Assembly: GCA_016787995.1 (NCBI GenBank)
Contig: JAEUTB010000188.1
Coordinates: 9,920 to 73,919 of the forward strand
Source of the DNA: Flavobacteriales bacterium
Lineage (GTDB): Bacteria > Bacteroidota > Bacteroidia > Flavobacteriales_F > PHOS-HE28
DNA: 64,000 bases
Reading direction: 5' to 3'
Shown here: piece by piece, positions 1,976 to 36,604 of the stretch
Layout of the letters: each line of letters starts with the position of its first letter
Position numbering within the stretch: position 1 is the first letter of the stretch
The notes under the pieces: model-generated
The model's input: only the letters and a program-made list of their open reading frames with translations
The model's database searches: none
Told to the model about the DNA's origin: nothing
Position numbers and translations under genes: made by a program

Positions 1976-3427
1976 TCAGAACTCCGCGCTCTTCGGCGTC
2001 CGCGGGAAGGGGATCACATCCCGGATGTTCCCCATGCCCGTCACGAACAGCACGAAGCGCTCCAGGCCGAGGCCGAAGCCCGCGTGCGGCACGGTGCCGA
2101 AGCGGCGCGTATCCAAGTACCACCACAGTTCGTCGGCGGGCACGTGCATCTCCTTCATGCGCGCTTCGAGCACATCCAGGCGTTCCTCGCGCTGACTTCC
2201 ACCGATGATCTCGCCGATGCCGGGGAAGAGCACGTCCATGGCGGCCACGGTGGTGCCCTTGTCGCTGTAGCCGAAGTCGCCGGGGCCGTTGGTGCGCATG
2301 TAGAAGGCCTTGATCTTGCCGGGGTAACCGGTCACGATCACCGGCTTCTTGAAGTGCTTCTCCACCAGGTAGCGTTCGTGTTCGCTCTGCAGGTCGATGC
2401 CCCATTCCACCGGGAACTGGAACTGCTTCTTCTGGTGCGGCTTGCTGCGCAGGAGGATCTCGATCGCGTCCGTGTAGGTGATCCGCTCGAAGGGGTTCAC
2501 CAGCACGAAGTTCAGGCGGTCGATGAGACCCATCTCCGCGCGTTGCTCCTTCGGCTTGGTGGCCTCCTCTTCCTTCAAGCGCGCATCCAGGAACTGCAGG
2601 TCGTCCATGCTGTTCTTCAGCACACGGGCGATGAGGTGCTTGCACAGGCCTTCGGCGAGGTCCATGTCGCCCGCGAGGTCCATGAAGGCGGCCTCGGGCT
2701 CGATCATCCAGAACTCGGCGAGGTGGCGCGCGGTGTTGCTGTTCTCGGCGCGGAAGGTGGGTCCGAAGGTGTAGACCTTGCCCAACGCGAGCGCGGATAG
2801 TTCGGCTTGCAACTGGCCACTCACGGTGAGACGTGATTCGGCACCGAAGAAGTCCTCCTTGAAGTCCACTTCACCGGCCTCGTTCAGCGGCGGGTTCTTC
2901 GCATCCAAGGTGCTCACGCGGAACATCTCCCCCGCACCCTCCGCATCGCTGGCGGTGATGATCGGGCTGTGGAAATAGTTGTAGCCGAGGCTGTCGAAGT
3001 ACTCGTGGATGCCGAAGCTGACCTGGTGGCGGATGCGGAAGATGGCGCTGTAGGTGTTGGTGCGGAAGCGCAGGTGGGCGTTCTCGCGCAGGAACTCCAG
3101 GCTGTGCTTCTTGGGTTGGATGGGATACTTCTCCGCATCGCTGTCGCCCAGCACTTCCACATCGGTCACCTGCATCTCCACGCGTTGGCCGCTGCCTTTG
3201 CTCTCCACGATCAGCCCGGTACACTTCACGGCCGCACTGGTGGTGAAGCGTGCACGTGTGGCGGCATCCACCTGTTCCTGATCGATCACGCACTGCAGGT
3301 TGCGGATGGTGCTGCCGTCGTTGAGGGCGATGAAGCGGTCGTTGCGGAAGGTGCGCACCCAGCCGGCCACGGTAAGGGTGGTGCCGGTGAGGGCGCTGTC
3401 GTCGAGGACGGACTTGATGGGGGTCAT
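1976..3427 (-). CDS. asnS: asparaginyl-tRNA synthetase
   Basis: Class II aaRS motifs FRAENSNTARHLAEFWMIEPE and GFGLGLERFV, plus an N-terminal OB fold (GWVRTFRNDRFIALNDGS). The start is placed at ATG 3427 (MTPIKSV) rather than the track start at 3460. Confidence 0.95.
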   Translation of the reverse strand: MTPIKSVLDDSALTGTTLTVAGWVRTFRNDRFIALNDGSTIRNLQCVIDQEQVDAATRARFTTSAAVKCTGLIVESKGSGQRVEMQVTDVEVLGDSDAEKYPIQPKKHSLEFLRENAHLRFRTNTYSAIFRIRHQVSFGIHEYFDSLGYNYFHSPIITASDAEGAGEMFRVSTLDAKNPPLNEAGEVDFKEDFFGAESRLTVSGQLQAELSALALGKVYTFGPTFRAENSNTARHLAEFWMIEPEAAFMDLAGDMDLAEGLCKHLIARVLKNSMDDLQFLDARLKEEEATKPKEQRAEMGLIDRLNFVLVNPFERITYTDAIEILLRSKPHQKKQFQFPVEWGIDLQSEHERYLVEKHFKKPVIVTGYPGKIKAFYMRTNGPGDFGYSDKGTTVAAMDVLFPGIGEIIGGSQREERLDVLEARMKEMHVPADELWWYLDTRRFGTVPHAGFGLGLERFVLFVTGMGNIRDVIPFPRTPKSAEF

Positions 3428-3576
3428 GGAAGTGCGCTGGGGCGTATCGCCGTGGAACAATTCGGCGCAAAGATGGAAAGCCTTGCCGTAAGGGGATCAT
3501 CCTAGCGCGGAAGGCGGCTCGGGATATGAGCGATGCCTCTATCCGGATCTCGTCCGAAAGCGTGACGTTCCGCGGA

Positions 3577-5097
3577 TCAGCGCTCGATGATGACTTTCAA
3601 ACAGCCATCAACCCAGCGTACGGTGTACCATCCAGGGGCGAGGTCCCGCAAGATCCGCGACAGGGCCTGGCCTTCGGGCATGGTCCATTGCATCACCATA
3701 CGTCCGGAGGCATCCACCAACTGCAATGGGAGTTCCGTGTCGCTATCCGTGCGCTGGATGGTGAACGCGCCGTTGTTCGGGTTCGGGTGAAGGTTGATCG
3801 CCGCCTTTTCGGTGAAGGTCACCGGAACGGCCTGTGAGTAGCTGGTGGTACCGTCAAGATCGGTCTGGCGCAAGCGGTAGTAGCTGGTGCCGGTGTAGGG
3901 CGCTGGATCATCGAAGGTGTAATGCAGTACCGTATTGGAATTGCCGGCACCGGCCACGGTCCCGACCGGTTCGAATGAAATGGCATCGCGGCTGCGTTCC
4001 ACGGTGAAGAAGTCATTGTCGCGTTCGCTGCCCGTGGCCCAGGTGCAGTGTGTGTAGGAGTTGTCCAGCGCTTGTGCTTCGAACGCGACGAGCTCGATGG
4101 GCAGGGGCGTGGCATCGTAGGCCATGGCCCAGATGTGTTCATCCTCGGGGTTGATCAGATCACTGAAGGGCACCGATGGCACCTGCACCTGGCGCAATAC
4201 GGGGTTTGTTTGAGAGGGAAGTGGTGGTTGCCAGGTACCCGATGTTTCCAGCCATCGTTGAGCGCGTATCGGACCCGCACCCAGGAAAGCGTCGTCGGCC
4301 GGGGCGTGGCTCAACAGCAGTGTTCCGGTGAACGCGGCGTTGGGAAGATCGGTAAGCCAGAAACGGTTCACAGTGTTGGCGCTGTTGTCGGCCACGGATG
4401 TACCCGCCATGTGCAACACGGTCTCATTCGTCGTTACCGGATACGGCATGTTGTTCACCGCTGTGGGATACGTGGCCACGGCGAGCAGGGTATTGGCAGG
4501 GAAGGCCGCGCCTGGGGTGAAGGAAAAAGGAAGGATCGTACCAGCCGCGTTGCTGAAGGGGATCGTATGTGCGCCGACATCGGCCCCCAGGGCCCAAATG
4601 AATCGACTGAGAAGGTCGGTGCTTTCGCTGCGCACGCTACCCCCGTTGTCCAGTACTGCGGTGCTGGCCGGGTTGAACACGGTGAAGGAATGTCCGTTCA
4701 GTCGAAGCACGGCTCCAAGATCCACCGTGCCGTTCGCTGCCGCAACCCTTCCGGCCATGGCATCCAGCAGCAGCGTCTTGTCGCCACCGGTGATCACCAG
4801 GTTTCGGAAATCGGTGATGTCCGCACCGGTGATGTCCTGCGCACCACCGTACAGCACGACCGAGCCGGTGCTCGTTGCCGTTGTGGCCGATCCTCCGCTG
4901 CTGTTGTCCCATTCGCCTTCCACCCGCACGCTGCCGTTGTTGGCGAAAAGCGCCGCTGCGTTCAGATGTACATCACCTTCCACCACGAGTTGCGTTCCAG
5001 TGTTCACCACGATGCTGACGGCCGATGCCTGGAAGACCGATTGGGCGTGGGTCCCATCACTTGCAACCACTGCCGTGATGAGGTGGAAGAGCAGCAT
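3577..5097 (-). CDS. secreted protein with T9SS C-terminal sorting domain
   Basis: The C-terminus LHPNPNNGAFTIQ...GWYTVRWVDGCLKVIIER is typical of a Por/T9SS CTD. A signal peptide follows the internal ATG at 5097 (MLLFHLITAVVASDGTHAQ). The track's upstream extension looks non-coding. Confidence 0.8.
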   Translation of the reverse strand: MLLFHLITAVVASDGTHAQSVFQASAVSIVVNTGTQLVVEGDVHLNAAALFANNGSVRVEGEWDNSSGGSATTATSTGSVVLYGGAQDITGADITDFRNLVITGGDKTLLLDAMAGRVAAANGTVDLGAVLRLNGHSFTVFNPASTAVLDNGGSVRSESTDLLSRFIWALGADVGAHTIPFSNAAGTILPFSFTPGAAFPANTLLAVATYPTAVNNMPYPVTTNETVLHMAGTSVADNSANTVNRFWLTDLPNAAFTGTLLLSHAPADDAFLGAGPIRAQRWLETSGTWQPPLPSQTNPVLRQVQVPSVPFSDLINPEDEHIWAMAYDATPLPIELVAFEAQALDNSYTHCTWATGSERDNDFFTVERSRDAISFEPVGTVAGAGNSNTVLHYTFDDPAPYTGTSYYRLRQTDLDGTTSYSQAVPVTFTEKAAINLHPNPNNGAFTIQRTDSDTELPLQLVDASGRMVMQWTMPEGQALSRILRDLAPGWYTVRWVDGCLKVIIER

Positions 5098-5348
5098 CCG
5101 GGTCCGGCCCCACCGGTGTGGTTGACACGCGCAGGGCATCGCCCGGGTGATCGCTTGTTCCAGCGTTCGTGGAAGTACCACCGTCCCGAGCGGCGCGCGT
5201 GTGGGAGCGGACCTCTGGCGCATGGTCGCAAGTTTCAACCAGCCATTGGGTGCGTTCAATACCATACAAGTGGTACTGGTCTTTCCAGGCGCGCGCAAGT
5301 CGAGGTGCGCTGCTTAGGCGTGAAGCCGGGCGGCCAACTGGCGGGTGC

Positions 5349-6002
5349 CTAGGCCCCGGGGTACACCTTCTTCACAGCGTCGTGCCGGCTGCTCACCTGG
5401 AGTTTTTCGTAGATGTTGCGGATGTGTACACGCACCGTACCGATGCTGATGCCCCCCTTTTCAGCGATCTCCTTGTACATCAGCCCTGCGGCAAGCCCAT
5501 CCACGATCTCTCGCTCCTTCGCAGTTAGCTGCTGATCGCTGATGGATGCACGCGCCTGCCCTTGGAAGCTGGAGACCACCAGGCGTGCGATGGCCGGGCT
5601 CATGGGCGAACCCCCTTGCACCACCTCGTGTATCGCAGGCACGAGTTCTTGTGCGCTCAAGCTCTTCAGCAGATACCCGGTGGCTCCGGCGCAGAGGGCT
5701 TGGAAGATGTAGTTCGGATTCTCGAAGACGGTGCTGATGATGAATTGCACCTGGGGGTTCAAGGGCTTCGCTCGTGCCACACAATCAATCCCGTTCACCC
5801 CGGGCATGTTGATGTCCATCACCACCACATCCGCCTCTACCCCGGTGAAATCCTTCAAGAACGTTTCGCCGTTGGGATAGGCCTTGATGAAGCGGATCGA
5901 CGCATCGTCGGAGAGGATCCTGCGTAAGAGGTCACGGATCTCCCGATCATCCTCCACGACCATCACACGCACGTCTTTTCGCATGGCTCCGGAAGGGTTC
6001 AT
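5349..6002 (-). CDS. NarL/FixJ-type response regulator (REC + LuxR HTH)
   Basis: REC domain (VMVVEDD...VVVMDINMPGVNG...) and a C-terminal LuxR-type HTH (LTAKEREIVDGLAAGLMYKEIAEKGGISIGTVRVHIRNIYEKL). Its ATG overlaps the kinase stop (ATGA at 5999-6002). Confidence 0.9.
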   Translation of the reverse strand: MNPSGAMRKDVRVMVVEDDREIRDLLRRILSDDASIRFIKAYPNGETFLKDFTGVEADVVVMDINMPGVNGIDCVARAKPLNPQVQFIISTVFENPNYIFQALCAGATGYLLKSLSAQELVPAIHEVVQGGSPMSPAIARLVVSSFQGQARASISDQQLTAKEREIVDGLAAGLMYKEIAEKGGISIGTVRVHIRNIYEKLQVSSRHDAVKKVYPGA

Positions 6003-7816
6003 TTCAGTGGCCCATGAGCGTGTAATGCGGTGCCTTTGCCGGGCGCGCTGGTGATGGTGAGCGAGCCACCATGCTGCCTCATTCGGGCGGGCATGTTCGC
6101 CAGACCATTGCCACGTCCGCGTGCTTGTTCGGGATCGAAGCCAACGCCGTCATCATCCACGCGAAGTTCGAAGGTATCGGTCCGGAGCTCCATCTTCACG
6201 CGCACCGACTTGGCGTGCGCGTACTTGAGGATGTTGTTGAAGCACTCGTTCAGCACCAGGTGAAGATCGCGCTTCAGTGCGGGTTCCATCTGGGCTTCAG
6301 TTCGAAGGGCGCGCAGGTCCAGTTCATGGTGGATGCCATTGTCGCCGAGCAGCCGCTGCGAAAGATCGCGCACATGGTCCAGCATGCCTTGGTGAGTGTC
6401 TTGTTGGGGATCCACGGCCCACACCACATCACAGAGGGCGCGGCTCACGTGTTTTGCGTGTTCGCTGATCCGGGTGAATGATCGGCCGGCCTCCGCCGCG
6501 TCGTGGGAGCGTTGCGAGGCGACCCCGCTGAGCAAGGCGATCTTGGTGAGGGTGGCTCCGATATCGTCGTGGATATCGCGTGCGATACGTGTGCGCACCA
6601 GTTCGGCCTCACGCTGCTTCTCGCTCCTGACCAGTTCGGCCTGTGCTTGGTGCAGCGCCTGGTTGGCTCTGCTCTTCGCTCGGTAGGAGCGGTACCACAC
6701 CAGGGCGAGCAACACGCCGAGCACGCCAATGGCGAATGCCGCCCATTTCTGTGAGCGCTGTTTATCGGCTTCGGCCCGTGCCAGTGCCATGGTCTTCTCA
6801 TGTGCGAAAGTGGCCCTGGCCTTTTCGGTGGCGCGTACCTTCTCCAGATCCATGTCGGTGACATACGCATCCATGGCCAGTGCCTGGTCGATGAACGCGT
6901 CGGTCATCCGCCCGGCGTTCGCATCCACCAGGGAGCGCAACGATCGCAAGTGGTACACCGCGTTGAATTCGTCCATCCCCTGGGCAAGTGTGATGGCACT
7001 ATCCAGCATGTGGATCGCTCGTGCTCCTTCGCCGAGCCTCAACATCATTCGGGTTTCGCCAACCACCCAGCGAACATATTGCGAAGGATCCTCGATGCGC
7101 GGAAGCAGCCTGCCAGCAAGGCGCTGCACGGAATCCGCTTCCCGCCAGCGCCTGGCCTTGAACAAGCCTTCACCAAGGTTCACCAGGTTGTTCACGAGGT
7201 GGTGTACGTCCCCCTGGGCTTCATAGAGATCTCCTGCCTTCGTGTGCCAATGGATCGAACTGTCCAGTTGATGCTGGTCGCCATAGAGCACGCCAAGCTC
7301 GTGGTAGCAGTTCGCCAGATCCGGTCCCGGCGGCAGTTCCTGCAGCAGGTAGATGGCCTTCAATACCATATCCATCGCCCCACTCCGGTCTTCTACCTGC
7401 CGCAATGCGAACCCTTGATAGGAAAGCGCGGCCGCCATGTCCTTGATGATCCGCTGCTGCTCGGCGAAGCGGTACATCTGCTGGAAGGCCACGATGGAGG
7501 AATCGAAGCGGGATGCGGTGTACCACCCCATGCCGCGTATGCGCCACAGTTGAACGCGCCAGAATCCAACGCGCGGATCCGTCGTCTGGTCGTTCTCCAG
7601 TCGTTGCAACCCGCTCTTCGCGAAATGGGCCACGCTGTCCGGGTTGCCCAGGCGGAAGTGGGCCCGGGCCAGGTAGTAGGCTGCTCGCGCGAAGCTCGTG
7701 TCATGCGCGGCCATGCGCAGTTCTCGGCGCAGGCTATCCACTTCTTGCGTGGCGCCGTTCAGCGCGGCGATCAACGCGCACGGAAGGAGGAGGCTTCGAA
7801 GGATGGGGCGTACCAT
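5999..7816 (-). CDS. TPR-repeat sensor histidine kinase (HisKA_3 / HATPase_c)
   Basis: Signal peptide, a long TPR-like helical-repeat region, and one TM helix (WAAFAIGVLGVLLALVWY). H-box RIARDIHDDIGATLTKI. ATPase motifs NNILKYA, DDGVGF, GNGLANM. Confidence 0.9.
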   Translation of the reverse strand: MVRPILRSLLLPCALIAALNGATQEVDSLRRELRMAAHDTSFARAAYYLARAHFRLGNPDSVAHFAKSGLQRLENDQTTDPRVGFWRVQLWRIRGMGWYTASRFDSSIVAFQQMYRFAEQQRIIKDMAAALSYQGFALRQVEDRSGAMDMVLKAIYLLQELPPGPDLANCYHELGVLYGDQHQLDSSIHWHTKAGDLYEAQGDVHHLVNNLVNLGEGLFKARRWREADSVQRLAGRLLPRIEDPSQYVRWVVGETRMMLRLGEGARAIHMLDSAITLAQGMDEFNAVYHLRSLRSLVDANAGRMTDAFIDQALAMDAYVTDMDLEKVRATEKARATFAHEKTMALARAEADKQRSQKWAAFAIGVLGVLLALVWYRSYRAKSRANQALHQAQAELVRSEKQREAELVRTRIARDIHDDIGATLTKIALLSGVASQRSHDAAEAGRSFTRISEHAKHVSRALCDVVWAVDPQQDTHQGMLDHVRDLSQRLLGDNGIHHELDLRALRTEAQMEPALKRDLHLVLNECFNNILKYAHAKSVRVKMELRTDTFELRVDDDGVGFDPEQARGRGNGLANMPARMRQHGGSLTITSAPGKGTALHAHGPLK

Positions 7817-7817
7817 A

Positions 7818-8849
7818 TCAGCCGAACCTGGTGGAGTAATCGTTGAGGTCGAGAAGTAGACGTTGCTCGCGCAAGTTGAGTGATCCTGCTCTTGTTATGT
7901 GTTTGATCAGTTCCAGGGCCGCGATGTTGGCCATGATGGCATTGCTTGCGGCCATGGTGGGAGCGATGCTGCGGGCGTTGAACGCGGCGATGTTCTCCGG
8001 TTGCGCATCGATCAGGTCTCCCCACGAACTGAAGAGTTCCTCGTAGCTGCGTGTATCCGGGCCCAACAAGGGGCCGATCAAACCCTGCGTGCTCATGTAG
8101 CCGCACTTGATCACGTGGTAGTTGAACGCGATGCGTGCTTCGCTGATCCAGTTCACCAGTTGTACGGGTTTGTCGGCGCTCAGAACGATGTGTCGCACTC
8201 CGGGCTGGGCGTTCATCAGGGCATTCCACGCTGCCGCGGTGCTCACGAACATCTCGTGCACGATCACCTTGCAGCCCGGGGCGATGCGCAGGATGCCGTC
8301 GCGCGCAGCCTCCACTTTGGCCCTGCCCGTATCGCTGGCGCCGAACAGGATCTGCCGGTGCAGATTGCTCTCTTCCACCAGGTCTCCATCCACCAGCACC
8401 AACGAGCCGATGCCTGCTGCCGCAAGTGACTGCGCCATCTGGTGGCCGATACCACCCATGCCGAGGATGAGCACCTGTGCGTCGGCCAATCGCTGTTGCC
8501 GGGCCAGGGACCCAAGGTGGTCGCTAACGGGCTCCAACGCATCGAAGAGGAGCAGTTGCCGATCGAAACGAACGTCGCAGCTGGTCTTCGGGTCGAAATG
8601 TTCGATGAGCTTCAGGGCTGAAAGACGGTCCATCAGTCTATCGATCATTGCCGGGGGAACATCAAGGCGCTGTGCCAGTTCGGCTCTGGCCCGCTCTTTC
8701 GTCGGTGCGTCGCTCAGTACGACAAGCAGCTCCTCGAACGCACGGCCTGCGGGTAGCGAAGCTTCGTCGTCAAGGTCCCTCACCACACGGATGAGTTCTC
8801 CTTCTTGCAGGAAGCGCAAGTGTCGTTTGAATCTCACGTGCCGGTGCAT
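7818..8849 (-). CDS. ThiF/MoeB/MccB-family E1-like adenylyltransferase with N-terminal RRE/peptide-clamp-like domain
   Basis: E1 ATP loop LILGMGGIGHQMAQSLAAAGIGSLVLVDGDLVEESNLHRQ, then GRAKVEAA and SADKP. The first roughly 95 aa resemble a PqqD-like winged-helix RRE. Only 3 isolated Cys, no CxxC pairs. Its stop lies 1 nt before the kinase ATG. Confidence 0.8.
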   Translation of the reverse strand: MHRHVRFKRHLRFLQEGELIRVVRDLDDEASLPAGRAFEELLVVLSDAPTKERARAELAQRLDVPPAMIDRLMDRLSALKLIEHFDPKTSCDVRFDRQLLLFDALEPVSDHLGSLARQQRLADAQVLILGMGGIGHQMAQSLAAAGIGSLVLVDGDLVEESNLHRQILFGASDTGRAKVEAARDGILRIAPGCKVIVHEMFVSTAAAWNALMNAQPGVRHIVLSADKPVQLVNWISEARIAFNYHVIKCGYMSTQGLIGPLLGPDTRSYEELFSSWGDLIDAQPENIAAFNARSIAPTMAASNAIMANIAALELIKHITRAGSLNLREQRLLLDLNDYSTRFG

Positions 8850-8892
8850 GGATCGAGTTTACGGATCTTGCGATGGCACCTGTCGTACCCGC

Positions 8893-9054
8893 TTAGTTGC
8901 GATCCCATCCGCCGCGCTTGGGCGCGCCGTGCGCCTTGTCAGGCGCTGGCTGAACGGTCTCTGGTTTCTTCGGCTCATCGGCCTGGTTCGATCGCGCTGG
9001 CACGGGGGTACTGTTGATGCCCATGAGGAAAGCGATGAAAGCGATGGGGTTCAT
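8893..9054 (-). CDS. candidate precursor peptide (53 aa; 43 aa from ATG 9024) ending in C-terminal Asn
   Basis: Reads MNPIAFIAFLMGINSTPVPARSNQADEPKKPETVQPAPDKAHGAPKRGGWDRN-stop, on the same strand and 43 nt upstream of the E1-like gene. Support is positional only; no homology is claimed. Confidence 0.4.
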   Translation of the reverse strand: MNPIAFIAFLMGINSTPVPARSNQADEPKKPETVQPAPDKAHGAPKRGGWDRN

Positions 9055-9223
9055 GGTGAAGGGGTTTGTTGGGCAAAAGTGCGCGAGCACATAAAGGTCT
9101 CGCCATACCATGTGGATGGTATGCTGTCGTTCTACCGGTTGATCGAGGTGCGCCTATGATGAAGATGGTATGGCGTGTGTGCAGAGGGTCGAGGAACCTT
9201 TGGCCCTTCTACCCGAACAGGCC

Positions 9224-10654
9224 ATGATACGCGCGATCCTGATCACTCTTTCCATCGTTCATGCTGCAACATCCTGTATCGGGCAGAACGTCGGGATCAA
9301 TGCGAACGGCGCAGCGCCGAATGCAAGCGCCCTGCTCGATATCGATGGTAGCGCGATCGTGGGTCCCAAGCGCGGACTGCTCATTCCGCGCGTGACCACC
9401 ACCGAGCGCTTGGGCATCGTGGCACCGGCCACGGGTCTGCTGGTTTTCGATACCTCCTTCCTGGAATTCTGGTTCTTCGATGGCCTGGTGTGGGTGCCGC
9501 TGAACAACGGGCGAGCGTGGCGCACGAGCGGCAATGCCGGCATCGTTGGTGGCACACATTTCATCGGTACCACGGACGCCGCACGCCTGGACTTCCGTGT
9601 GAACAATGAACCGAGCGGCCACCTGGGCCATTTCTTGCGGAGCACAGCGTTCGGATATCGCTCCGGCGCATCCATCGTTAGTGGACAACGGAACACGTTG
9701 ATCGGTGCTCACGCTGGCGAACTATGTACCACGGGCTCTTACAACACGGCGGTCGGTTCGCACAGTTTGGAGACCAACACGACGGGCAGCTCCAATGTGG
9801 GCATCGGTGTATTCTGTTTGCAGAATAGTACCACCGGCTCAGGCAACACCGCTGTCGGGAACGAGTCCCTTACCAGCAATACAACTGGATACCGGAATTC
9901 GGCCGTAGGCGAGTCCGCTCTGCTGGACAACACTACGGGAGCGTATAATGTTGCTTTGGGTTCGTCTGCGTTAGCGAACAATACAACGGGCAACGACAAT
10001 ACGGCGATCGGCAGCGGCGCTGGTGATCAGAACATCACGGGGAACGGGAACGTCGCCATTGGGCATCAAAGCGGACCCGTCTGGTCTGGTCTACAGAATA
10101 CTACGAACTTGGGTCCGCAATGCTACACGTATGCGGACAACGCTGTGGCCGTGGGCTATGTTGCGCAGGCAGAAGGCGGCAACAGTATGGCGCTAGGGTA
10201 TGGCTCACGAGCGGTGGGTGCCAATAGCACGGCCATCGGTCAAACCGCGCTGGCGCTATCCCCCAATAGCCTGGTCCTGGGCGGCACCGGTGCGAACGCG
10301 GTCAGTGTGGGGATCGGCGTGTCGGCGCCATCGGCTACCTTGGAGGTGAACGGCTACACCAAACTGGGCTCCGACGCACCTGCGATCCGGACGAAGAAGA
10401 TCACCGTGAACACGCCCACCTCACAAGGAGCGGTGCTTTGGATACCCCACGGCGTCATCGGTAACCGGATCCTCTCCGTGCAACTGATGGTAGAATACGC
10501 TGCGGGGCAATTCGTGCCGGACAATTACGCCTTTACGGGCTATTACCTACGATGGACGATCACTGGAGCGAACATCGCTGTGGAGACCGTTGCGGCGTCA
10601 TCGGCAAATGTCCTGAACAAACCCATGAAGGTGTTCATCACCTATGAGCAGTAG
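9224..10654 (+). CDS. secreted tail-fibre/adhesin-head-like repeat protein
   Basis: Signal peptide from ATG 9224 (MIRAILITLSIVHAATSCIGQ). NVGINANGAAPNASALLDI lead-in. Many NT-A-[VI]-G repeats similar to YadA-head/Hep_Hag repeats. Paralogous to the central part of ORF 15505-18471, but it lacks the S74 domain. Confidence 0.75.
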   Translation: MIRAILITLSIVHAATSCIGQNVGINANGAAPNASALLDIDGSAIVGPKRGLLIPRVTTTERLGIVAPATGLLVFDTSFLEFWFFDGLVWVPLNNGRAWRTSGNAGIVGGTHFIGTTDAARLDFRVNNEPSGHLGHFLRSTAFGYRSGASIVSGQRNTLIGAHAGELCTTGSYNTAVGSHSLETNTTGSSNVGIGVFCLQNSTTGSGNTAVGNESLTSNTTGYRNSAVGESALLDNTTGAYNVALGSSALANNTTGNDNTAIGSGAGDQNITGNGNVAIGHQSGPVWSGLQNTTNLGPQCYTYADNAVAVGYVAQAEGGNSMALGYGSRAVGANSTAIGQTALALSPNSLVLGGTGANAVSVGIGVSAPSATLEVNGYTKLGSDAPAIRTKKITVNTPTSQGAVLWIPHGVIGNRILSVQLMVEYAAGQFVPDNYAFTGYYLRWTITGANIAVETVAASSANVLNKPMKVFITYEQ

Positions 10655-10663
10655 GGGCACGTT

Positions 10664-11247
10664 TCACTTCGCTTCCGCTGCGGTACCTGTCGGGTGGAGC
10701 GCAAGTACGCGCATTTTCATCGCTTCCAATTCCGCACGCACTTCCAACAACTGCTCCTGTTGCTCCTGCACTGCTTTTACCAAGGGCACCACGAACTGCT
10801 CGTAGCCGATGGTGTAGTGATCGGTCGGTACTCTTGGCCGATGCACACCGGAGAATTCATAGCCCAGTGCGATCGCGAGGCTGTCCACTTCCTGGCCAGG
10901 AAGCCGGTTTGCCTAACGTTTGGAGCGTTGGCCATGGCCTCGGCGTATGCGCGTTGTTCCTCCGCGTCCGCACTGTCGCGCATGTGCTTGGCCACACCGT
11001 TGAAGTCGTGGAACGCCGCGATGTCGAACCTGTACGTGACCGGTCGTAGTGCGTTGATGAATGCAAGTCCTGGGACATCCTCGCGCACGTCGTTCTTGAA
11101 GCGCGAATCGCTGATGTTCTGCCACGCACCGTACCCCCCGGCGAGGTTGGTGTTGTACAAGGGATCGCCGAACCGGATGACGTTGGCGGCCGTGCTCACC
11201 GTGTTGTAACCAACGGCCGTTCGACTGTTGCCGCTTCCGCGCGGCTG
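10664..11247 (-). pseudogene. 5-prime-truncated, frameshifted relic of a tail-fibre-like gene (Peptidase_S74 chaperone domain)
   Basis: The open frame begins at the codon right after the FG-GAP gene stop (QPRGSGNSRTAVGYNTVSTAANVIRFGD...SDSRFKNDVREDVPGLAFINALRPVTYRFD). It continues in another frame (DSLAIALGYEFSGV...[22 protein letters not shown]). There is an apparent 1-nt deletion near 10895 (GGCC where GGGCC would restore GFLAQEVDSL). It aligns to the C-terminus of ORF 15505-18471. Confidence 0.6.
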
Positions 11248-29724: not shown

Positions 29725-30363
29725 CTACCGCCCGGGGTAGACCTTGCGCACGGCCTCCATACGCCCGTTCACCTGCAGTTTGCTGTAGATGCGCCGCACG
29801 TGCACACGTACGGTCTCCGTGCTGATACCCGCTTTGGCGGCGATCTCTTTGTACTGCAATCCGGAGGCGAGGCCATCGAGCACTCCTTTCTCCCGGTCGG
29901 TGAGCAGCTCGTCGTTGATCTGTTGCCGGGTCTCCTGCTGGAAGCTGCTCACCACCAAACGAGCGATGGCGCTGTTCATGGGCGATCCTCCTTTGTGGAT
30001 GTCGTGGATCGCTTCGAGCAGTTCTTCGGTGGTGGTGCTTTTCAACAGGTAACCCGTGGCACCGGCACAGAGGGCCTGGAAGATGTAGGCCGGGTTCTCG
30101 AAGATGGTGAGCATCAGGTATTGTACCTCGGGCTTCACCACCTTGGCTTCGCGCACGCAATCGATCCCGCTCTTACCGGGCATATTGATGTCCATCAGCA
30201 CCACTTGCGCCGTGAGCTCTTCGATGTGTTCCAGGAACGCATCGCCACTGGCATACGTGCGTACGAGTTGAAGCCCATCGGCCCGTTCGATACGGCGACG
30301 TAGCAATTCGCGCAGTTCATCATCGTCCTCAACGATGACGATACGGACCGGGGCGCTTGCCAT
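29725..30363 (-). CDS. NarL/FixJ-type response regulator (REC + LuxR HTH)
   Basis: Paralog of 5349-6002 (IVIVEDDDELRELLRRRI...VVLMDINMPGKSG...LTDREKGVLDGLASGLQYKEIAAKAGISTETVRVHVRRIYSKL). ATG 30363 is preferred over the track's TTG at 30396. Confidence 0.9.
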   Translation of the reverse strand: MASAPVRIVIVEDDDELRELLRRRIERADGLQLVRTYASGDAFLEHIEELTAQVVLMDINMPGKSGIDCVREAKVVKPEVQYLMLTIFENPAYIFQALCAGATGYLLKSTTTEELLEAIHDIHKGGSPMNSAIARLVVSSFQQETRQQINDELLTDREKGVLDGLASGLQYKEIAAKAGISTETVRVHVRRIYSKLQVNGRMEAVRKVYPGR

Positions 30364-30392
30364 GTGGGCAAGATAGCGTTTCCCGCTGGATA

Positions 30393-32243
30393 TCAAGTGT
30401 TGAGGGCAAGGTCCAGCTGGAGCCGGGTGCCCTTGGTACCATCCAAGCTCAAGCGTGCACCGATGCGTTCCGCACGTGCCCGCATATTGGACAGACCATG
30501 ACCACTCGCCTGTTCCTTGTCGCCCATTCCTTTGCCATCATCCTCCACCACCAGGCGAATGGACCGTTGGTCGGTACGCATCACCACCCCGATGTGCTCC
30601 GCCTTGGCATATTTGATCGCATTGTTCAGCCCTTCCCGCAGGATGAGGTAAACGTCCCTTTTCGTTCCTGGATCAAGGGTCACATCGGGCCCTTCGTGCA
30701 CGCAGTCTATCGTGTACTTGACGTGGCTCCATTCGAGCATCCGTTCAGCATGGGCACGCACCCGTTCGGTAAGCCCGGCGAGCGAGTCGTGGTGCGGGTC
30801 TATGGCCCAAACGATATCGCCGAGCGAACGATTGGCTTCGGCAGCGACACGTTCGATATCCCGTGCGGTACGTGCCAGCGCAACGGGATCGTTCTTCAGT
30901 ACGATGCCCACCTCACTGCTCAGCATGGCGAGTTTGGTAAGGTCGCTGCCGAGTTGATCGTGCACGTCGCGGGCGATACGGGTGCGCACTTCGGACGCTT
31001 CACGTTCCTTTTCGCTGATGATCAATTGCTCCTGTGCGCGCACCAGTTCTTCATTCTTAGCGCGCATGGCAAGGGCGCTACGTGCGCTGTTGCGGTAGAG
31101 GCCGAACCCGAGCGCGGCGATGACAAGAAGTAGACCGCCGCCGAGCAGTGCATTGCGCTTCTTTCGCTTTTCCTCAGCCAGTTCAGCGGCCACCCTCTCG
31201 GCCTCGCGTTCCTGCTCCGCCTTCATACGCACTTCGGTGATCGCCTGTGTCTTTTCGATATCGAGGTCGTTCGTGTGAGCTGTTCGGGCTTTGTCCAGAT
31301 AGGACAAGGCCTGTGCACTTTCTCCGGTGGCGCTTGCCACCAGCGCGAGCAGTTCGTAGGTACGGGATCGGTACTCGTTGTTCTCCAATTCAAGGGCGAT
31401 GCGTTCGGCTTCCAGCAGTATCGAACGCGCCTCTTGATACTTGCCGACGCCACAAAGGGCTCGTGCCAACTGACCGAGGTAGATGCACCGTTGGCCGAGA
31501 TTCTCATCGTTCCGGAGCTCCGAGGCGGCCATTCGCAAGTAGTGCAAGGCACTGTCGAAGCGCTCCTCTTTCATGTGGATCTCGGCGATGTCCATGCGGC
31601 ACAGCGCTGCATGGTTGAGGAGCTCCATACGCTCGTAGATGCCGAGTGTCTTGCGTTGGATGAGCAATGCGCTATCCCGGTCCGCCTCATCGAAGAGGAT
31701 GGTCCCGAGTCCCGAATAGGTGTTGGCCAGGTTACCATCCTCGGGCAGCTTGTCCAGGATGGCCAGCGCTTGGAGCGTGAGTGATTTCGCGCGGGGGATG
31801 TCGTCCGTGGCGCGGAACTGATAGGCCTGGTAGTTCATGGCGGCCGCCCGCAACTTCAGATCGCCCATGCGCTCGGCCACACGTTCCATGGTGGTGAAGG
31901 CCGCCAAGGCTTCGGCATACCGACCGGCATAGTGGTGGGCGACCCCTTCGAGCTTCGCGGCTTGCAAAGCGCGCTGGTCCAGCAGCCTCTTGTCACCGCC
32001 GTCGTCGATGGCATTGATCGCGTCGGCAGCGAGGCGCGCTGCCCTGTACGATCGTTCCGTTTCGCCGGTGGCCACCCACGCTTTCGCACTGTCCAACAGC
32101 TGATCGACCCGCACGGTATCGGCCCATCGGCCCGCCTTTCCGTTCGCGGGGAAAAGCGACTCCACTGCGATGTGGGTACTGTCCTGTGCAAGGACTGATG
32201 CTGCTGTGCAAAGCAGGAACAGGACAGGAGCGAGCATCCTCAT
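30393..32243 (-). CDS. TPR-repeat sensor histidine kinase (HisKA_3 / HATPase_c), array member 1
   Basis: Signal peptide from ATG 32243 (MRMLAPVLFLLCTAASVLAQ). TPR-like region, one TM helix. H-box RIARDVHDQLGSDLTKL. ATPase motifs NNAIKYA, DDGKGMG, GHGLSNM. Confidence 0.9.
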   Translation of the reverse strand: MRMLAPVLFLLCTAASVLAQDSTHIAVESLFPANGKAGRWADTVRVDQLLDSAKAWVATGETERSYRAARLAADAINAIDDGGDKRLLDQRALQAAKLEGVAHHYAGRYAEALAAFTTMERVAERMGDLKLRAAAMNYQAYQFRATDDIPRAKSLTLQALAILDKLPEDGNLANTYSGLGTILFDEADRDSALLIQRKTLGIYERMELLNHAALCRMDIAEIHMKEERFDSALHYLRMAASELRNDENLGQRCIYLGQLARALCGVGKYQEARSILLEAERIALELENNEYRSRTYELLALVASATGESAQALSYLDKARTAHTNDLDIEKTQAITEVRMKAEQEREAERVAAELAEEKRKKRNALLGGGLLLVIAALGFGLYRNSARSALAMRAKNEELVRAQEQLIISEKEREASEVRTRIARDVHDQLGSDLTKLAMLSSEVGIVLKNDPVALARTARDIERVAAEANRSLGDIVWAIDPHHDSLAGLTERVRAHAERMLEWSHVKYTIDCVHEGPDVTLDPGTKRDVYLILREGLNNAIKYAKAEHIGVVMRTDQRSIRLVVEDDGKGMGDKEQASGHGLSNMRARAERIGARLSLDGTKGTRLQLDLALNT

Positions 32244-32320
32244 GGTCGGTGGTCGGATCTTACACGTCGGATGCAACGAAGATCCAACTTCATTCCGATC
32301 GTGGAAATAACCCACGAGGG

Positions 32321-34432
32321 TTAAGCGGGCGATAGGTCCACGCGGAACCGTATGCATGTTCCTGATCCGGCATCGCTGGCAATGGTCAATGAGCCGCCGA
32401 TGTGTTCAGCCCGATGGCGCATGTTCTCGAGTCCATGACCGCTTTTGGGTGCGCCGCTCATACCAATGCCATCATCGCACACCTCGAACTGCACGAACGA
32501 AGCGGATGTCTTGAAGACCACACGGATGTGTTCTGCCTTCGCGTATTTGATGGCGTTGTTCAGGGCCTCGCGGAGGATCAAATAGATATCGCGTTTGGTG
32601 GCAGGGTCCAAGGATGTGTCGGGCCCTTCATGCCTACAGTCGATGGTATGGGCCACATGGCTCCACAGGAGCATACGTTCACAATGCGCACGAACGCGTT
32701 CGGTGAGTCCCGCCAGCGAATCGTGATGGGGGTCCACGGCCCATACGATGTCGCCAAGTGAGCGGTTCGCTTCAGTGGAAACGCGTTCCATGTCTGCGGC
32801 CAATTCGGAAAGCGCCGTCGGGTCCTCGTTGGCCAAGGCCTTCGCTTCACTGCTTAGCAGGGCGAGTTTCGTGAGGTCGCTACCCAATTGGTCATGTACA
32901 TCACGAGCGATGCGCGTTCGCACTTCGGCGGCTTCGCGCGCGCGTTCACTCACTACCAGTTTCTCCTGGGCGGCTTCGATGGCGCGTTTGGCCCTCGTCG
33001 TGTACCGCATGCGCACCCACGCCGCGGATCCCAGCACAGCAGCGATCACCAGCAAGGCCAACAACCAGGTACGTTGTTCCCGGTGTCTCGCCTCGGTCCG
33101 TGTTCGTTCGGCCACATGGCGTAGGCTGTCCGTTTCCGCCGCGCGCTCATAGGCGTACTTGAACCCGCTGCGCAACAATTCGCGCTGGTTCTCTTCGCGG
33201 AGGATGCTGTCGTTCAGCAGCACGACGCGCTCGTGCACCGTTAGTGCTTCTTGCCAGCGACCGAGCGCCTTCAAGGCCGCATATCGCGCAGCGGCAGCAT
33301 CGCGCTGCAGGTTCAGTTCCTCGGCGCGTGCTGCGGCGCTGTCGGCGGCCACGGCCATCGCGAGCGCAAGGGCTGGTTCACCTGTCCGTAGGAGCACATT
33401 GCTCATCCCCACGAGTGCATTGCTCAACCCGTATGGCAGGTCTTCTTCCCGGGCCATCACCACGTTCTGCTCGAAGAGCGCCTTGGCTTCACTGGTCCGG
33501 TGTTGTGCGAGCAGAAGCGTTGCCAAGCGGTTGCGCACGTTCACCAGTCCGTGGTGGTCGCCGATGGCCAGTCTGATCGCTTCGCTACGGCGGTAGGCTT
33601 GCCTCGATCCGGTGGTATCGCCCAGTTCTTCGAGGCACGAACCGATCTCCTCTAGTTGCGTGCCCAATTGATGCTGATCGTCGAGTTCCTCCGCCATCGC
33701 TGCGGCACGACGGTAGTATCCGAGCGCCTCGTTCCAGTCGCTTTGGTTGAGGTACAGGCCGCCGAGGTTAGCCAGCGAGGTGCAGATGCCGCGCTTGTTG
33801 CCTAGCAGCTCCTGGATGTGCAGGCTCTGTTGGTAGAGGTCCACGGCCTTGCCATGGTCGCCGCGGAGCATCTGCACGCGTCCGATGGCGTTGAGGTCGT
33901 TGGCGATGCTCGCGCTATCCGCCAGGCGCTCGTGGAGGGCCAAGCCTTCTTGATAGAGCGTGAGCGCGGAATCCAGATCCCCGAGGAAGGAGAGCATACT
34001 GCCCATGTTGCTGATCACGTCGGCCTGTCCTTCGGCATCGCCATTGCGCCGATGGAGAGCAAGCGCCGTGTCATAATGCAACAGGGCGGTCCGCATATCG
34101 CCGCGCACGTACCATACGGCGGCCAGGAGCTCGCTCGCTCGAGCGACGAAGACCGGGTTGTTGCGTTCACGTGCATCGTGCTGCAGTTGAAGTCCGAGGG
34201 CGTACGCACTATCCGGATCACTGAACAGGAAGCCGTCCCAGACCAGGTCGTAGTACGCCCTGAAGCGGATGCTGTCCGGCTGTGCCGCATCGTTGGCGAG
34301 CGTGCGTAGCGAGTCGATGCCGGTTTGGGAGAATGATGGTGCACCGAGCAGGATGAGCGCACCCGCTATCCAAGATCGCAGTCCGGTCGATGCGGTCAGT
34401 CGTGGCATCCGTACTTCAGGCCAATGGAGCAT
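32321..34432 (-). CDS. TPR-repeat sensor histidine kinase (HisKA_3 / HATPase_c), array member 2
   Basis: Same architecture as member 1, with H-box RIARDVHDQLGSDLTKL. An alternative ATG at 34408 (MPRLTAST...) would remove the 17-nt overlap with the upstream kinase. Confidence 0.9.
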   Translation of the reverse strand: MLHWPEVRMPRLTASTGLRSWIAGALILLGAPSFSQTGIDSLRTLANDAAQPDSIRFRAYYDLVWDGFLFSDPDSAYALGLQLQHDARERNNPVFVARASELLAAVWYVRGDMRTALLHYDTALALHRRNGDAEGQADVISNMGSMLSFLGDLDSALTLYQEGLALHERLADSASIANDLNAIGRVQMLRGDHGKAVDLYQQSLHIQELLGNKRGICTSLANLGGLYLNQSDWNEALGYYRRAAAMAEELDDQHQLGTQLEEIGSCLEELGDTTGSRQAYRRSEAIRLAIGDHHGLVNVRNRLATLLLAQHRTSEAKALFEQNVVMAREEDLPYGLSNALVGMSNVLLRTGEPALALAMAVAADSAAARAEELNLQRDAAAARYAALKALGRWQEALTVHERVVLLNDSILREENQRELLRSGFKYAYERAAETDSLRHVAERTRTEARHREQRTWLLALLVIAAVLGSAAWVRMRYTTRAKRAIEAAQEKLVVSERAREAAEVRTRIARDVHDQLGSDLTKLALLSSEAKALANEDPTALSELAADMERVSTEANRSLGDIVWAVDPHHDSLAGLTERVRAHCERMLLWSHVAHTIDCRHEGPDTSLDPATKRDIYLILREALNNAIKYAKAEHIRVVFKTSASFVQFEVCDDGIGMSGAPKSGHGLENMRHRAEHIGGSLTIASDAGSGTCIRFRVDLSPA

Positions 34433-36449
34433 CCAAGCGGATCAAGGTACCACCTCCGGCCTCACTGGCAATGACCAGATCGCCGGCCAAGCGATCGGAC
34501 CGCTCCTTCAGATTGCGTAGCCCGTTGCCGGTCCGCAACGCACCCGGAACATGGAAGCCCACCCCATCATCCTTGACCTGGATCCGCACCCGCTCCTCCC
34601 GTGCGGTAAGGTCCACTTCGATCATCGAGGCTTGGGCATATTTGATCGCGTTGTTCAATGCTTCGCGTAGGAAGAGGTATAGATCACGCTTGCGGGCTGG
34701 ATCGATGTGGCGGTCGCGCCCCTCCAACACGCAATGGACACGATAGGCGACCCCACTTCGTGCGAGCATGCGTTCCGCGAACTGTTTCGAACGATCCGCC
34801 AGACCGATCAGGCTATCATGTTCGGGATCAACGGCCCAGACGATGTCGCTTAACGATCGGCCGGCTTCATGGGCCACGCGATCGATGTCCGCCACCAGTT
34901 GCGGTACGGAGGCTGGATCATCCTTCAAGCTGGCCTGCACCTCGCTTCCAAGTAGGCTGAGCTTGGTGAGGTCACTTCCAAGCTGATCGTGCACATCACG
35001 TGCGATGCGTGTGCGCACTTCGGAAGCTTCCCGTTGTTTTTCCGCCGAGATCAGTCGTTCCTGCGCTTCCAGCACCATCGCATTCGCCTGGCGTTGTGAG
35101 CGCCATCGGAGCCAGAACGCGGTTGCGGCACCCACCGCGGCGCATGCGAGGGCGATCAAGAGCCAGCGTTGATTACGCTCCCGATCGGCTCGGTAGGCCT
35201 GGATGATGCCTTCGCTACGCAACGTCTCCGCTCGCCCGATGCTGTCTCGCACTTCTTTTTCCCGGAATGCAGCCAGCAACAGCTCTTCCCGCCCGCTCAT
35301 GGCGGCCACACTGTCCTTCAGAACGGTCCACACCTCGGTCAGGCGCAGGGCGTCGGCCGTACGGCCCTGCTGTTTGTACAGCTCTTTGAGCTTGCCAGCC
35401 GCATATAGCATGGAGCCTTCGTCGCCCAGTTCGCGCGCCACGCCCACGTAGCTGTTCTCCGATGCCATTCGGAACCCCTCCAACAGCCGGTTTTCGGCCT
35501 CCTGTGTACGACCAAGTCGCCACAGGCCTTCACCGATGAGTACCGTACACGCGCAATGCGCCGCGTCATCGTCCATCCGGCCAGCCAGTACCTCGCATTG
35601 TCGTGCGCGTCGGACGCCCTCTTCCACGCGTCCTTGTCCGTACAACAAGCGCACCAAGGGCACGAGCGTAGGCAAACTGTCCCATGCGTTGTCCGTCCGC
35701 GCTGCTGTGATCAAACCCTTCAGCAGCAAAGCCTCTGCGGCCGATGTGTCGCCTTGTAGCAGCGCGAGATCGGCGCGTTCGTTCAATACCGCGATACTGT
35801 CTACCGGAGAGGTGGCGCGCACGGAGTCCAACAAGGCCGATGCCCTCTCGGTCTGTTTGCGCTGCACGGCGCATCGTGCCAGGTGGACGATGGCTTGCGT
35901 ACTGAGCCGAGCGTCGTTCAGTGCTTCGGCAATGGCCCGTTCCCTTCCGAACGCCTCCACGGCGCGAGTCCACGAGCCGGTCACCTGATAGACCAGACCG
36001 AGCGCATCCCAACATTCTCCCACGGCTCGTTGGTGGCCAACGGCCTGGAATTCCTCCATGGCCGCCTGTAGGGAGGCCAATGCGAGCGGGATGTTGCGGG
36101 CGAACTTGGCCCGGTAACCGGTGAAGAAGTGGAAGGCCCCGCGCGCATGGCGGGCGCGCTGGCGCACAGCCGCTTGCGGATGTAGCAGGAGTTCAGCGCT
36201 CAGCGGATCCAGTCGGTGGAGGTAAGGCAAGGCGCGGTCCGAAGTGGTCCAGGACTCCACTGCCCAAATGAGCAGGCGCAATTGCAACGTGTCTTTCTTC
36301 TGCGGATCGAGCAGCGGCGTGATCGAATCCAAGCGCGCGGCGTTCTCCTGTGCCTGGGAGGAGGAGGCCGGAACGCACGATGCTAGAACGGTGAATACGA
36401 GCGCTTTCCGCATCGGGTCAAAAGTGGTGCCTCTTCTCGGCTGCAGCAA
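34416..36449 (-). CDS. TPR-repeat sensor histidine kinase (HisKA_3 / HATPase_c), array member 3
   Basis: Same architecture, with H-box RIARDVHDQLGSDLTKL, NNAIKYA, DDGVGF, GNGLRNL. Alternative ATG at 36413 (MRKALVFTVLASC). Confidence 0.9.
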   Translation of the reverse strand: MLQPRRGTTFDPMRKALVFTVLASCVPASSSQAQENAARLDSITPLLDPQKKDTLQLRLLIWAVESWTTSDRALPYLHRLDPLSAELLLHPQAAVRQRARHARGAFHFFTGYRAKFARNIPLALASLQAAMEEFQAVGHQRAVGECWDALGLVYQVTGSWTRAVEAFGRERAIAEALNDARLSTQAIVHLARCAVQRKQTERASALLDSVRATSPVDSIAVLNERADLALLQGDTSAAEALLLKGLITAARTDNAWDSLPTLVPLVRLLYGQGRVEEGVRRARQCEVLAGRMDDDAAHCACTVLIGEGLWRLGRTQEAENRLLEGFRMASENSYVGVARELGDEGSMLYAAGKLKELYKQQGRTADALRLTEVWTVLKDSVAAMSGREELLLAAFREKEVRDSIGRAETLRSEGIIQAYRADRERNQRWLLIALACAAVGAATAFWLRWRSQRQANAMVLEAQERLISAEKQREASEVRTRIARDVHDQLGSDLTKLSLLGSEVQASLKDDPASVPQLVADIDRVAHEAGRSLSDIVWAVDPEHDSLIGLADRSKQFAERMLARSGVAYRVHCVLEGRDRHIDPARKRDLYLFLREALNNAIKYAQASMIEVDLTAREERVRIQVKDDGVGFHVPGALRTGNGLRNLKERSDRLAGDLVIASEAGGGTLIRLDAPLA

Positions 36450-36559
36450 TAACCCGCTCAGGTTAGATCATGCCACATCGCGTTCATCCAGCTCGGTCAC
36501 CACTCATCACAATGGAAACATTATTCAGTGCAAAACGTTTCCAGTGTGTTCGGATCGCC

Positions 36560-36567
36560 ATACGTTT
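36560..36567 (+). promoter_or_regulatory. candidate Bacteroidetes -7 promoter box (TAcgTTTG)
   Basis: Matches the TAnnTTTG consensus, 37 nt upstream of the TetR ATG at 36605. No clear -33 element was seen. Confidence 0.3.
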
Positions 36568-36604
36568 GCACCCCGATCCGAAAAGGATCACCTGGAGAAC
36601 GGCC

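Follow-up and report, generated by a model that had tools for sequence, protein, structure and literature searches.

When a gene for a small peptide and a gene for a peptide-modifying enzyme share an operon with a sensor kinase and a response regulator, do the four genes form one functional unit, and if they do, what would that unit make and what would it respond to? We address this question for four genes at positions 5349 to 9054 of a 64,000-nt stretch of DNA (hereafter the window), which covers positions 9,920-73,919 of the forward strand of contig JAEUTB010000188.1 (GenBank assembly GCA_016787995.1). The genome is a Flavobacteriales metagenome-assembled genome (MAG) that is 74% complete and holds a single copy of this module. 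On sequence grounds we think it probable, with moderate confidence, that the genes constitute an operon for a peptide that is made on the ribosome and modified after translation (RiPP), centred on an enzyme like MccB of microcin C and equipped with a dedicated, autoregulated two-component switch. The genes, from first to last, are:

8893..9054, minus strand: precursor peptide gene, 53 aa; ATG 9054, TAA 8895-8893; tail RGGWDRN
7818..8849, minus strand: E1-like enzyme gene, 343 aa; ATG 8849, TGA 7820-7818; Pfam ThiF 2e-36
5999..7816, minus strand: sensor histidine kinase gene, 605 aa; Pfam HisKA_3, HATPase_c and tetratricopeptide repeat (TPR)
5349..6002, minus strand: NarL/LuxR-type response regulator gene, 217 aa; Pfam Response_reg and GerE helix-turn-helix

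A sequence-only reading of this DNA had described four same-strand genes with almost no spacing, and its coordinates and spacings all held: the gap between the peptide and E1 genes is 43 nt, that between the E1 and kinase genes is 1 nt, and the kinase TGA overlaps the regulator ATG by 4 nt (ATGA, 6002-5999). A sequence scan found no terminator-like site within the operon on its coding (minus) strand. The possibility that an attenuator or terminator separates the peptide gene from the E1 gene was considered and rejected, as no such site is present there and the fold of the spacer has z = 0.2 against shuffled sequence. The peptide lies in a longer open reading frame (ORF) that begins at 9111; we take ATG 9054 as the true start because a promoter box lies between the two positions and the relatives share this Met.

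Conservation of the module and of its precursor peptides

We scanned one genome per GTDB species with an alignment of the E1 family as the query and recovered 22 loci, all in Bacteroidota MAGs (Flavobacteriales, Bacteroidia and Saprospiraceae); individual loci are referred to below by L numbers. When these were searched by tblastn with the four window proteins, one or more peptide genes, the E1 gene, the kinase gene and the regulator gene were found in this order in 19 of the 22 (86%), even where E1 identity had fallen to 37-41%, and further metagenome contexts add support. The junctions are conserved as well: of the 9 loci of the high-GC clade, 8 have a single nucleotide between the E1 and kinase genes, and in the other the two genes overlap. 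All-against-all clustering of the ORFs of 23 loci returned only E1, kinase and regulator as widely conserved. In the regulator tree, the modules' regulators all fall into a single clade (88/93 support), and the deep split within it parallels the one among the E1 enzymes; the sole further member of this clade is the window's own paralogue at ~29.7-30.4 kb.

The peptides are as recognizable as the larger proteins. The window copy consists of a hydrophobic N-terminal leader (MNPIAFIAFLMGIN), a variable spacer rich in Pro, Lys and Glu, and the invariant C-terminal core RGGWDRN. Among 40 copies in 20 loci, the leader reads MNPIAFIAFLMGIN or M-I-T-E-T-L-L-I-F-L..., the variable spacer spans ~30 residues, and GGWDxN is followed directly by the stop codon; the genes occur as 1-4 tandem copies per locus, always upstream of E1. 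All four Gly codons occur at the invariant positions, GAT and GAC are found at 20:20, AAT and AAC at 21:19, and each of the three stop codons is represented. Such free synonymous choice indicates that the constraint acts on the protein and not on the DNA. A profile search of 5.8 billion proteins returned 101 non-redundant members, all from Bacteroidota and all annotated as 'hypothetical'. None of the 101 contains a Pfam domain, and the window peptide has no Pfam or NCBIfam match. Their tails carry Gly-Gly in 101/101, Trp in 101/101, Asp in 100/101 and a terminal Asn in 101/101; 77 have Arg and 19 have Gly at position -7, and position -2 may be R, G, H, Y, L or A, varying even among the 2-4 paralogues of a single locus. 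The alignments thus show the peptide to be a real and previously unnamed family.

Two other readings of the Gly-Gly motif were discarded. It was rejected as the leader cleavage site of a peptidase-containing ABC transporter (PCAT), since the C39 peptidase (PF03412) occurs in 7 of the 132 genomes of the order and in 0 of the 12 that are E1-positive. Nor do the peptides resemble ubiquitin-like proteins ending in ...LRGG: they are too short and too low in complexity to adopt a beta-grasp fold, the module has no E2 or JAB gene linked to it, and the E1 enzyme has a RiPP recognition domain.

These comparisons bear on the simplest objection to a functional unit, namely that a common type of TPR kinase and regulator pair came to lie downstream of E1 by accident and that the small ORF is spurious. 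Such pairs are indeed frequent in this genome, but the order is kept across classes with 1-nt or overlapping junctions, the module regulators are monophyletic, the presence of the operator described below matches that of the regulator without exception, and the peptide is under codon-level purifying selection. We therefore regard chance adjacency as extremely improbable, and the comparative data already refute it. Together, the conserved linkage, a regulator tree that mirrors the E1 tree and the co-occurring palindrome strongly support the earlier proposal that the peptide/E1 pair is functionally tied to the two-component genes. The peptide(s) and E1 are inherited jointly with the TPR kinase and the NarL-type regulator as one compact unit, of which the two-component pair is, judging from these comparisons, a dedicated and co-inherited part.

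Some loci depart from the window's arrangement. Two metagenome contigs, L025 and L026 (11300-15373), have two tandem TPR kinases between E1 and the regulator. In L027 and L028 (6915-9618, 10360-11925) and in L018, a gene for a protein carried by the type IX secretion system (T9SS) sits between the peptides and E1, and L027 and L028 also contain a second, divergent set of regulator, TPR kinase and S74-protein genes. In L016 (986-5299) and L029 (5414-9683), the peptide genes are divergent from a gene for a large CHU_C/T9SS surface protein, which is followed by a sigma-54-type response regulator; we saw no clear -24/-12 promoter upstream of the peptides in loci of this type.

The rate of change of the module can be set beside that of a neighbour. 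The asnS gene at 1976-3460 of the window and its counterpart in L007 (10124-11584) encode proteins that are 94% identical between these two genomes, and the module proteins of the same pair are 48-82% identical, with 51% for the peptide, 60% for E1 and 56% for the kinase. This contrast may reflect an ordinary difference in rate, or accelerated divergence or allelic exchange of the module.

The E1-like enzyme and the C-terminus of its predicted substrate

What might the unit make? The E1-like enzyme fuses an N-terminal RiPP recognition element (RRE, or peptide-clamp domain), composed of a beta-sheet and three helices, to a ThiF adenylation domain. In profile comparison, its nearest solved proteins were MccB (1.4e-44) and PaaA (1.9e-35). 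Foldseek comparison of its AlphaFold2 (AF2) model (pLDDT 91.7) gave full-length matches of ~350 columns to MccB (template-modelling score 0.79) and PaaA (0.75), while ThiF, MoeB and UBA5 matched the C-terminal domain only. Residues D226 and Y251 align with the Mg-binding D214 and the catalytic Y239 of MccB, and both are invariant in 26 family members. In MccB, Asp214 and Tyr239 are critical for its two successive adenylations (PMC12596934). In the mechanism that we propose, the peptide leader would dock on the RRE, and the enzyme would adenylate the carboxylate of the terminal Asn.

How the adenylate would be resolved is a separate question. We give an all but even chance to the MccB route, in which a succinimide would form and then an N-P-linked nucleotide; this chemistry is favoured because the terminal Asn is invariant and because the enzyme is more similar to MccB than to other candidates. 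The latter point is seen most clearly in comparison with IndF of Streptococcus pneumoniae, which links a Trp as an indolylamide to the C-terminal carboxylate that lies three residues further on (PMC12150305). In BLASTP, the E1 and IndF aligned only within the ATP-binding core (78 residues, 54.7 bits), with an IndF sequence that was machine-read from the supplement of that paper and may contain errors; alignment with MccB gave 95-156 bits over >200 residues. Sequence comparison identified no residue that decides between MccB-type and IndF-type chemistry, although the E1 is clearly nearer to MccB, and Y251 does not separate the two because the same Tyr may exist in IndF too.

The invariant Trp at the spacing used by IndF keeps a cyclization route open. 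Here, the E1 would act as a C-terminal macrocyclase or ligase and form no nucleotide conjugate: the Asn acyl-adenylate would be attacked by the indole nitrogen of Trp(-4), or a thioester on Cys249 would be passed to another nucleophile, and either route would yield a small cyclic WDxN head group. Several features fit this alternative. In 101/101 peptides the Trp precedes the last residue by exactly three positions, as it does in IndA (NWYFI) and in enterofaecin precursors (WWxxx), and position -2 differs among paralogues in one locus, as would be expected of a ring residue that tunes specificity. Moreover, the family has an invariant Cys249 in a K-C-G-Y-M motif; this residue shares a beta-strand with the catalytic Tyr, which follows two positions later, and corresponds to an Ala in MccB; judging from its position, it could carry a thioester intermediate. 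This Cys, and the replacement of the MccB CxxC by SYEE in the E1, count against a firm assignment of the chemistry to the MccB type. On the other side stand the restriction of the IndF similarity to the ATP-binding core, the variable hydrophobic residues at the ends of IndF- and EnfB-type substrates, and the fact that the MccB succinimide route specifically explains an invariant Asn (PMC12596934). We consider macrocyclization quite possible, but lean against it.

Our preferred reading of an MccB-like enzyme leaves the module both similar to and distinct from microcin C (MccA/MccB). The shared elements are an RRE-ThiF enzyme with a full-length fold match, retention of the Asp and Tyr residues, and a precursor that is encoded directly upstream and ends in Asn. 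Long-precursor variants of microcin C from Synechococcus and Yersinia pseudotuberculosis were also compared; the Synechococcus MccA peptides are long (~55 aa), tandemly duplicated, Asn-terminated and validated as substrates (PMC4010828). Unlike microcin C loci, the module has no MccC exporter or MccD/E/F genes, its enzyme lacks CxxC and has an invariant Cys beside the catalytic Tyr, its peptides carry an invariant GGWD before the Asn, the operon contains a two-component system, and the host belongs to the Bacteroidota. As neither an exporter nor an immunity gene was found, we call the locus MccB-like and not a microcin C cluster.

The second comparison is with IndF/IndA and with EnfB/enterofaecin, in which an RRE-bearing, ThiF-like enzyme likewise acts on a C-terminus with Trp three residues before the last. 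Enterofaecin-type clusters include linked kinases and regulators, among them one regulator of CitB/NarL type, and have been proposed to act in quorum sensing (bioRxiv 10.1101/2024.05.13.593846). They differ from the module in several respects: IndF and enterofaecin clusters carry transporters and a protease, neither of which is linked to loci of the window type; the main enterofaecin types have AgrC-like polytopic kinases and LytTR regulators; and their precursors end in variable hydrophobic residues, in contrast to the invariant Asn here.

Predicted operator and promoter, and a probable second target

A sigma-70 promoter scan gave no match, as expected for Bacteroidota, and we therefore used the conserved TAnnTTTG-type box to place the promoter. 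TAnnTTTG is the -7 promoter consensus of Bacteroidota, and dimers of NarL-family regulators usually bind 7-2-7 or 6-4-6 inverted repeats. The sites and genes concerned are:

9155..9173, minus strand: distal conserved box CCATACCATCTTCATCATA, with an extra TACCATC half-site ~50 nt upstream of the palindrome; present in 8/9 high-GC-clade loci
9106..9121, no strand assigned: operator site 1, palindrome TACCATCCACATGGTA (TACCAY-N4-RTGGTA), presumed regulator binding site
9074..9081, minus strand: -7 promoter box CACTTTTG, Bacteroidota-type, 24 nt past the palindrome and 19 nt before the peptide ATG
5260..5275, no strand assigned: operator site 2, palindrome TACCACTTGTATGGTA, 73 nt past the stop codon of the regulator gene; a degenerate -7-like box follows after 24 nt
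3577..5097, minus strand: secreted protein with a T9SS C-terminal sorting domain (Por_Secre_tail); likely start ATG 5097
9170..10654, plus strand: YadA-head-like repeat protein, tail-fibre-like; divergent from the module, recurrent neighbour

The arrangement before the first peptide gene is conserved. A palindrome TACCAY-N4-RTGGTA, a spacer of 23-24 nt and a box (T/C)AnnTTT(G/A) were found in 17/17 kinase- and regulator-bearing loci with upstream sequence, and L015-L017, which have neither kinase nor regulator, show no such layout upstream of their peptides. Each clade has its own half-sites (TACCAT/ATGGTA or TACCAC/GTGGTA), and the box and its spacing are conserved in both. Within the window, the palindrome has 3 matches at <=1 mismatch against 0.15 expected. 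The third of these, a near-palindrome with one mismatch at 37145-37160, lies within a TetR-family gene and was taken as chance; the surrounding segment (36470-38550) holds this TetR-family regulator gene followed by a gene for a TolC-like outer-membrane efflux protein. The 3.3-Mb genome contains 4 exact palindromes, two of which flank this operon; the other two have no -7 box, and one of them lies inside an ORF. The composite of palindrome and box occurs once in the whole genome, before the window peptide.

Since the palindrome is centred near -45, the regulator is suggested to be an activator. In our proposal, the phosphorylated regulator would bind the palindrome and activate the peptide promoter, with the distal box CCATACCATCTTCATCATA presumably aiding its binding. 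The kinase and regulator are encoded on the very transcript that the regulator appears to activate, which would amount to positive autoregulation.

The second operator would bring adjacent secreted surface proteins under the control of the same regulator. A palindrome occupies the position of site 2 in L001, L007, L011, L013, L018 and L022 as well, and in L011, L013 and L022 a perfect TAnnTTTG lies 23 nt from it. In seven loci, a second site of this kind precedes a gene for either the T9SS-sorted family or a tail-fibre-like S74 protein. Homologues of the T9SS protein are found after the regulator in L001 and L007 and between the peptides and E1 in L018, L027 and L028. The T9SS-sorted protein at 3577..5097 is thus a probable second target, its membership of the regulon being suggested by site 2. 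The 9170..10654 family adjoins a copy of the operator in 7 loci, pointing away from the peptide promoter in some and coming immediately behind site 2 in others; regulation of the window gene is uncertain because there is no matching -7 box on its side of site 1. Beyond this gene, on the minus strand at 10664-11199 and directly after an FG-GAP gene, ORF fragments with YadA-head-like repeats and a Peptidase_S74-type chaperone segment look like a decayed tail-fibre-like paralogue of the 9170-10654 family.

The sensor kinase and what it may read

The kinase has only two hydrophobic segments, at residues 1-20 and 355-378. Its AF2 model (pLDDT 83.6) places 14 TPR-type helices at 39-322, in a superhelix of ~7 repeats, followed by one long membrane-spanning helix, a DesK-type HisKA_3 dimerization and histidine phosphotransfer (DHp) domain and the catalytic HATPase_c domain. 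Hydrophobicity and model thus bear out the earlier description of a signal peptide and a TPR region ahead of a single transmembrane helix, an order from which the TPR part is predicted to be extracytoplasmic. By Foldseek, the kinase core matches DesK, and the sensor is nearest to the peptide-binding TPR superhelices of LGN/Pins. NCBIfam matches were to UhpB, LiaS and NarL-type models, with a weak NF053520 match in the kinase. By these similarities, the pair belongs to the DesK/NarL class of two-component systems. The sensor domain is the least conserved part of the kinase and has few invariant residues.

The genome also contains paralogues of this pair. At 29725-36449 of the window, a regulator follows three tandem TPR/HisKA_3 kinases; this regulator is the closest paralogue (58%) of the module regulator, and the three kinases are the closest paralogues (33-37%) of the module kinase. 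With neither a peptide nor an E1 gene in it, the cluster has the appearance of an offshoot of the module's switch that arose by duplication and lacks a peptide.

What would such a sensor respond to? In the model that we favour, the extracytoplasmic TPR superhelix would sense the module's own product or its effects, by a logic like that of agr or nisin. RiPP operons with embedded kinase and regulator genes, such as those for nisin and subtilin, usually sense their own product, and for the kinase-linked ThiF-type RiPP clusters of lactic acid bacteria a role in quorum sensing has been suggested. By analogy with these systems, the kinase may well sense the module product, directly or indirectly, and we give this nearly, if not quite, even weight. 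That the modified peptide itself is the kinase ligand, as the sequence-only reading had suggested, is plausible on the same analogy, though we tend to doubt it. The sensor fold would be compatible with peptide binding, given its similarity to LGN/Pins; compatibility is no evidence of binding. A full peptide autoinduction circuit of Bacteroidota, in which the modified WDxN head group would reach the periplasm, be read by the TPR kinase and turn on the operon and the surface genes, is in our judgement rather unlikely; within such a circuit, the 2-4 paralogous peptides differing at position -2 would be distinct signals.

A number of observations weigh against a product-sensing, MccB-like module. 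No transporter, protease or immunity gene recurs among the 23 clustered loci, and Pfam-annotated metagenome contexts contain no transporter, acetyltransferase, S66 peptidase or HIT gene. No exporter or processing gene is linked, and, as noted above, the E1-positive genomes of the order have no C39 peptidase. Four loci of Saprospiraceae type (L015-L017 from GTDB and contig L029) have retained peptides and E1 but neither kinase nor regulator, so the product must have a use that is independent of the kinase. With 11 HisKA_3 kinases and 13 NarL-type regulators in this genome, the type is so common that the pair could just be a regulator that was recruited. Finally, the peptide core is invariant and the sensor domain divergent; co-evolving pheromone and receptor pairs show the opposite pattern.

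An alternative is that the kinase responds to an extracytoplasmic signal of other origin, for instance contact with a surface or the state of the envelope, and that the RiPP is purely an output, produced alongside surface proteins and with no feedback from the product. In that case it would serve as an antibiotic, a toxin or an effector of another kind; a peptidyl-nucleotide like microcin C, delivering a mimic of aspartyl-adenylate, is one example. A terminal Asn that never varies and an enzyme closest to MccB agree with this, as do the Saprospiraceae-type loci that lack two-component genes and the divergence of the sensor beside an invariant core. TPR/HisKA_3 kinases are a large paralogous family here, mostly unlinked to peptides, and the nearest paralogous regulator serves three kinases that have no peptide. 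The module is also patchy, being present in 12/132 genomes of the window's order, as is usual for accessory natural-product clusters. Against an output of this kind, the producer of an aspartyl-tRNA-synthetase poison would need both an MccC-like exporter and an MccE/F/H-like immunity gene, and neither is linked. We considered the neighbouring asnS as a resistant copy of the target and rejected it, as the gene is a single-copy housekeeping gene that is simply syntenic in a close relative and not a resistant duplicate. A Trojan-horse carrier, moreover, would not need the invariant Gly-Gly-Trp-Asp, and the kinases embedded in nisin- and subtilin-type operons generally respond to their own product. 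Overall, we hold an output without feedback to be a serious possibility, while leaning somewhat against it.

The product-sensing model that we prefer has parallels in gene layout. As in the agr (AgrD-AgrB-AgrC-AgrA) and nisin systems, precursor, modifier, kinase and regulator would form one operon that is activated upstream of the precursor, with an adjacent second promoter for effector genes. The likeness is one of circuit logic and not of homology: the four proteins are non-homologous to those of agr and nisin, the sensor is a periplasmic TPR-HisKA_3 kinase, and the cell has two membranes. In its sensor, the module resembles FimS/FimR of Porphyromonas gingivalis and other Bacteroidota kinases that sense through a periplasmic TPR domain, with the signal peptide, periplasmic TPR, one transmembrane helix, kinase core and an apparent surface-protein output in common; FimS differs in that it is not linked to a peptide or E1 gene, and the window regulator is of NarL/GerE type with a DesK-like kinase core.

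The sequence-only reading had stated that no MccB-type locus organized in this way was known. This stands for MccB-type and Bacteroidota loci in the papers searched, where a full-text search found no paper joining ThiF, RiPP and Bacteroidota in this sense, and 2025 reviews of ThiF-type RiPPs make no mention of Bacteroidota, histidine kinases or two-component systems. It does not extend to ThiF-type RiPP clusters of lactic acid bacteria, some of which have kinase and regulator genes. What appears to be new, as far as sequence can tell, is the precursor family with its enzyme subfamily, the embedded TPR-kinase/NarL switch and a defined predicted operator.

ThiF/MccB-type RiPP enzymes are known from Proteobacteria, Cyanobacteria and Firmicutes, and the present family, of ~100 non-redundant peptides and ~40 enzymes annotated as 'hypothetical' or 'ThiF family', is confined to uncultured Bacteroidota. 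The module offers an unusually sharply defined substrate motif, GGWDxN, together with a short enzyme that should lend itself to reconstitution. For a NarL-type regulator it also yields a predicted operator with its promoter, in a phylum where few regulatory sites have been mapped. If the product does not feed back on the kinase, the locus would still represent new MccB-like chemistry or an antibiotic lead with a dedicated switch. If it does, the module would be one of few examples in which a two-membrane bacterium signals with a ribosomal peptide by way of a periplasmic TPR sensor, and it would supply a first ligand class for the very large and uncharacterized family of Bacteroidota TPR/HisKA_3 kinases.

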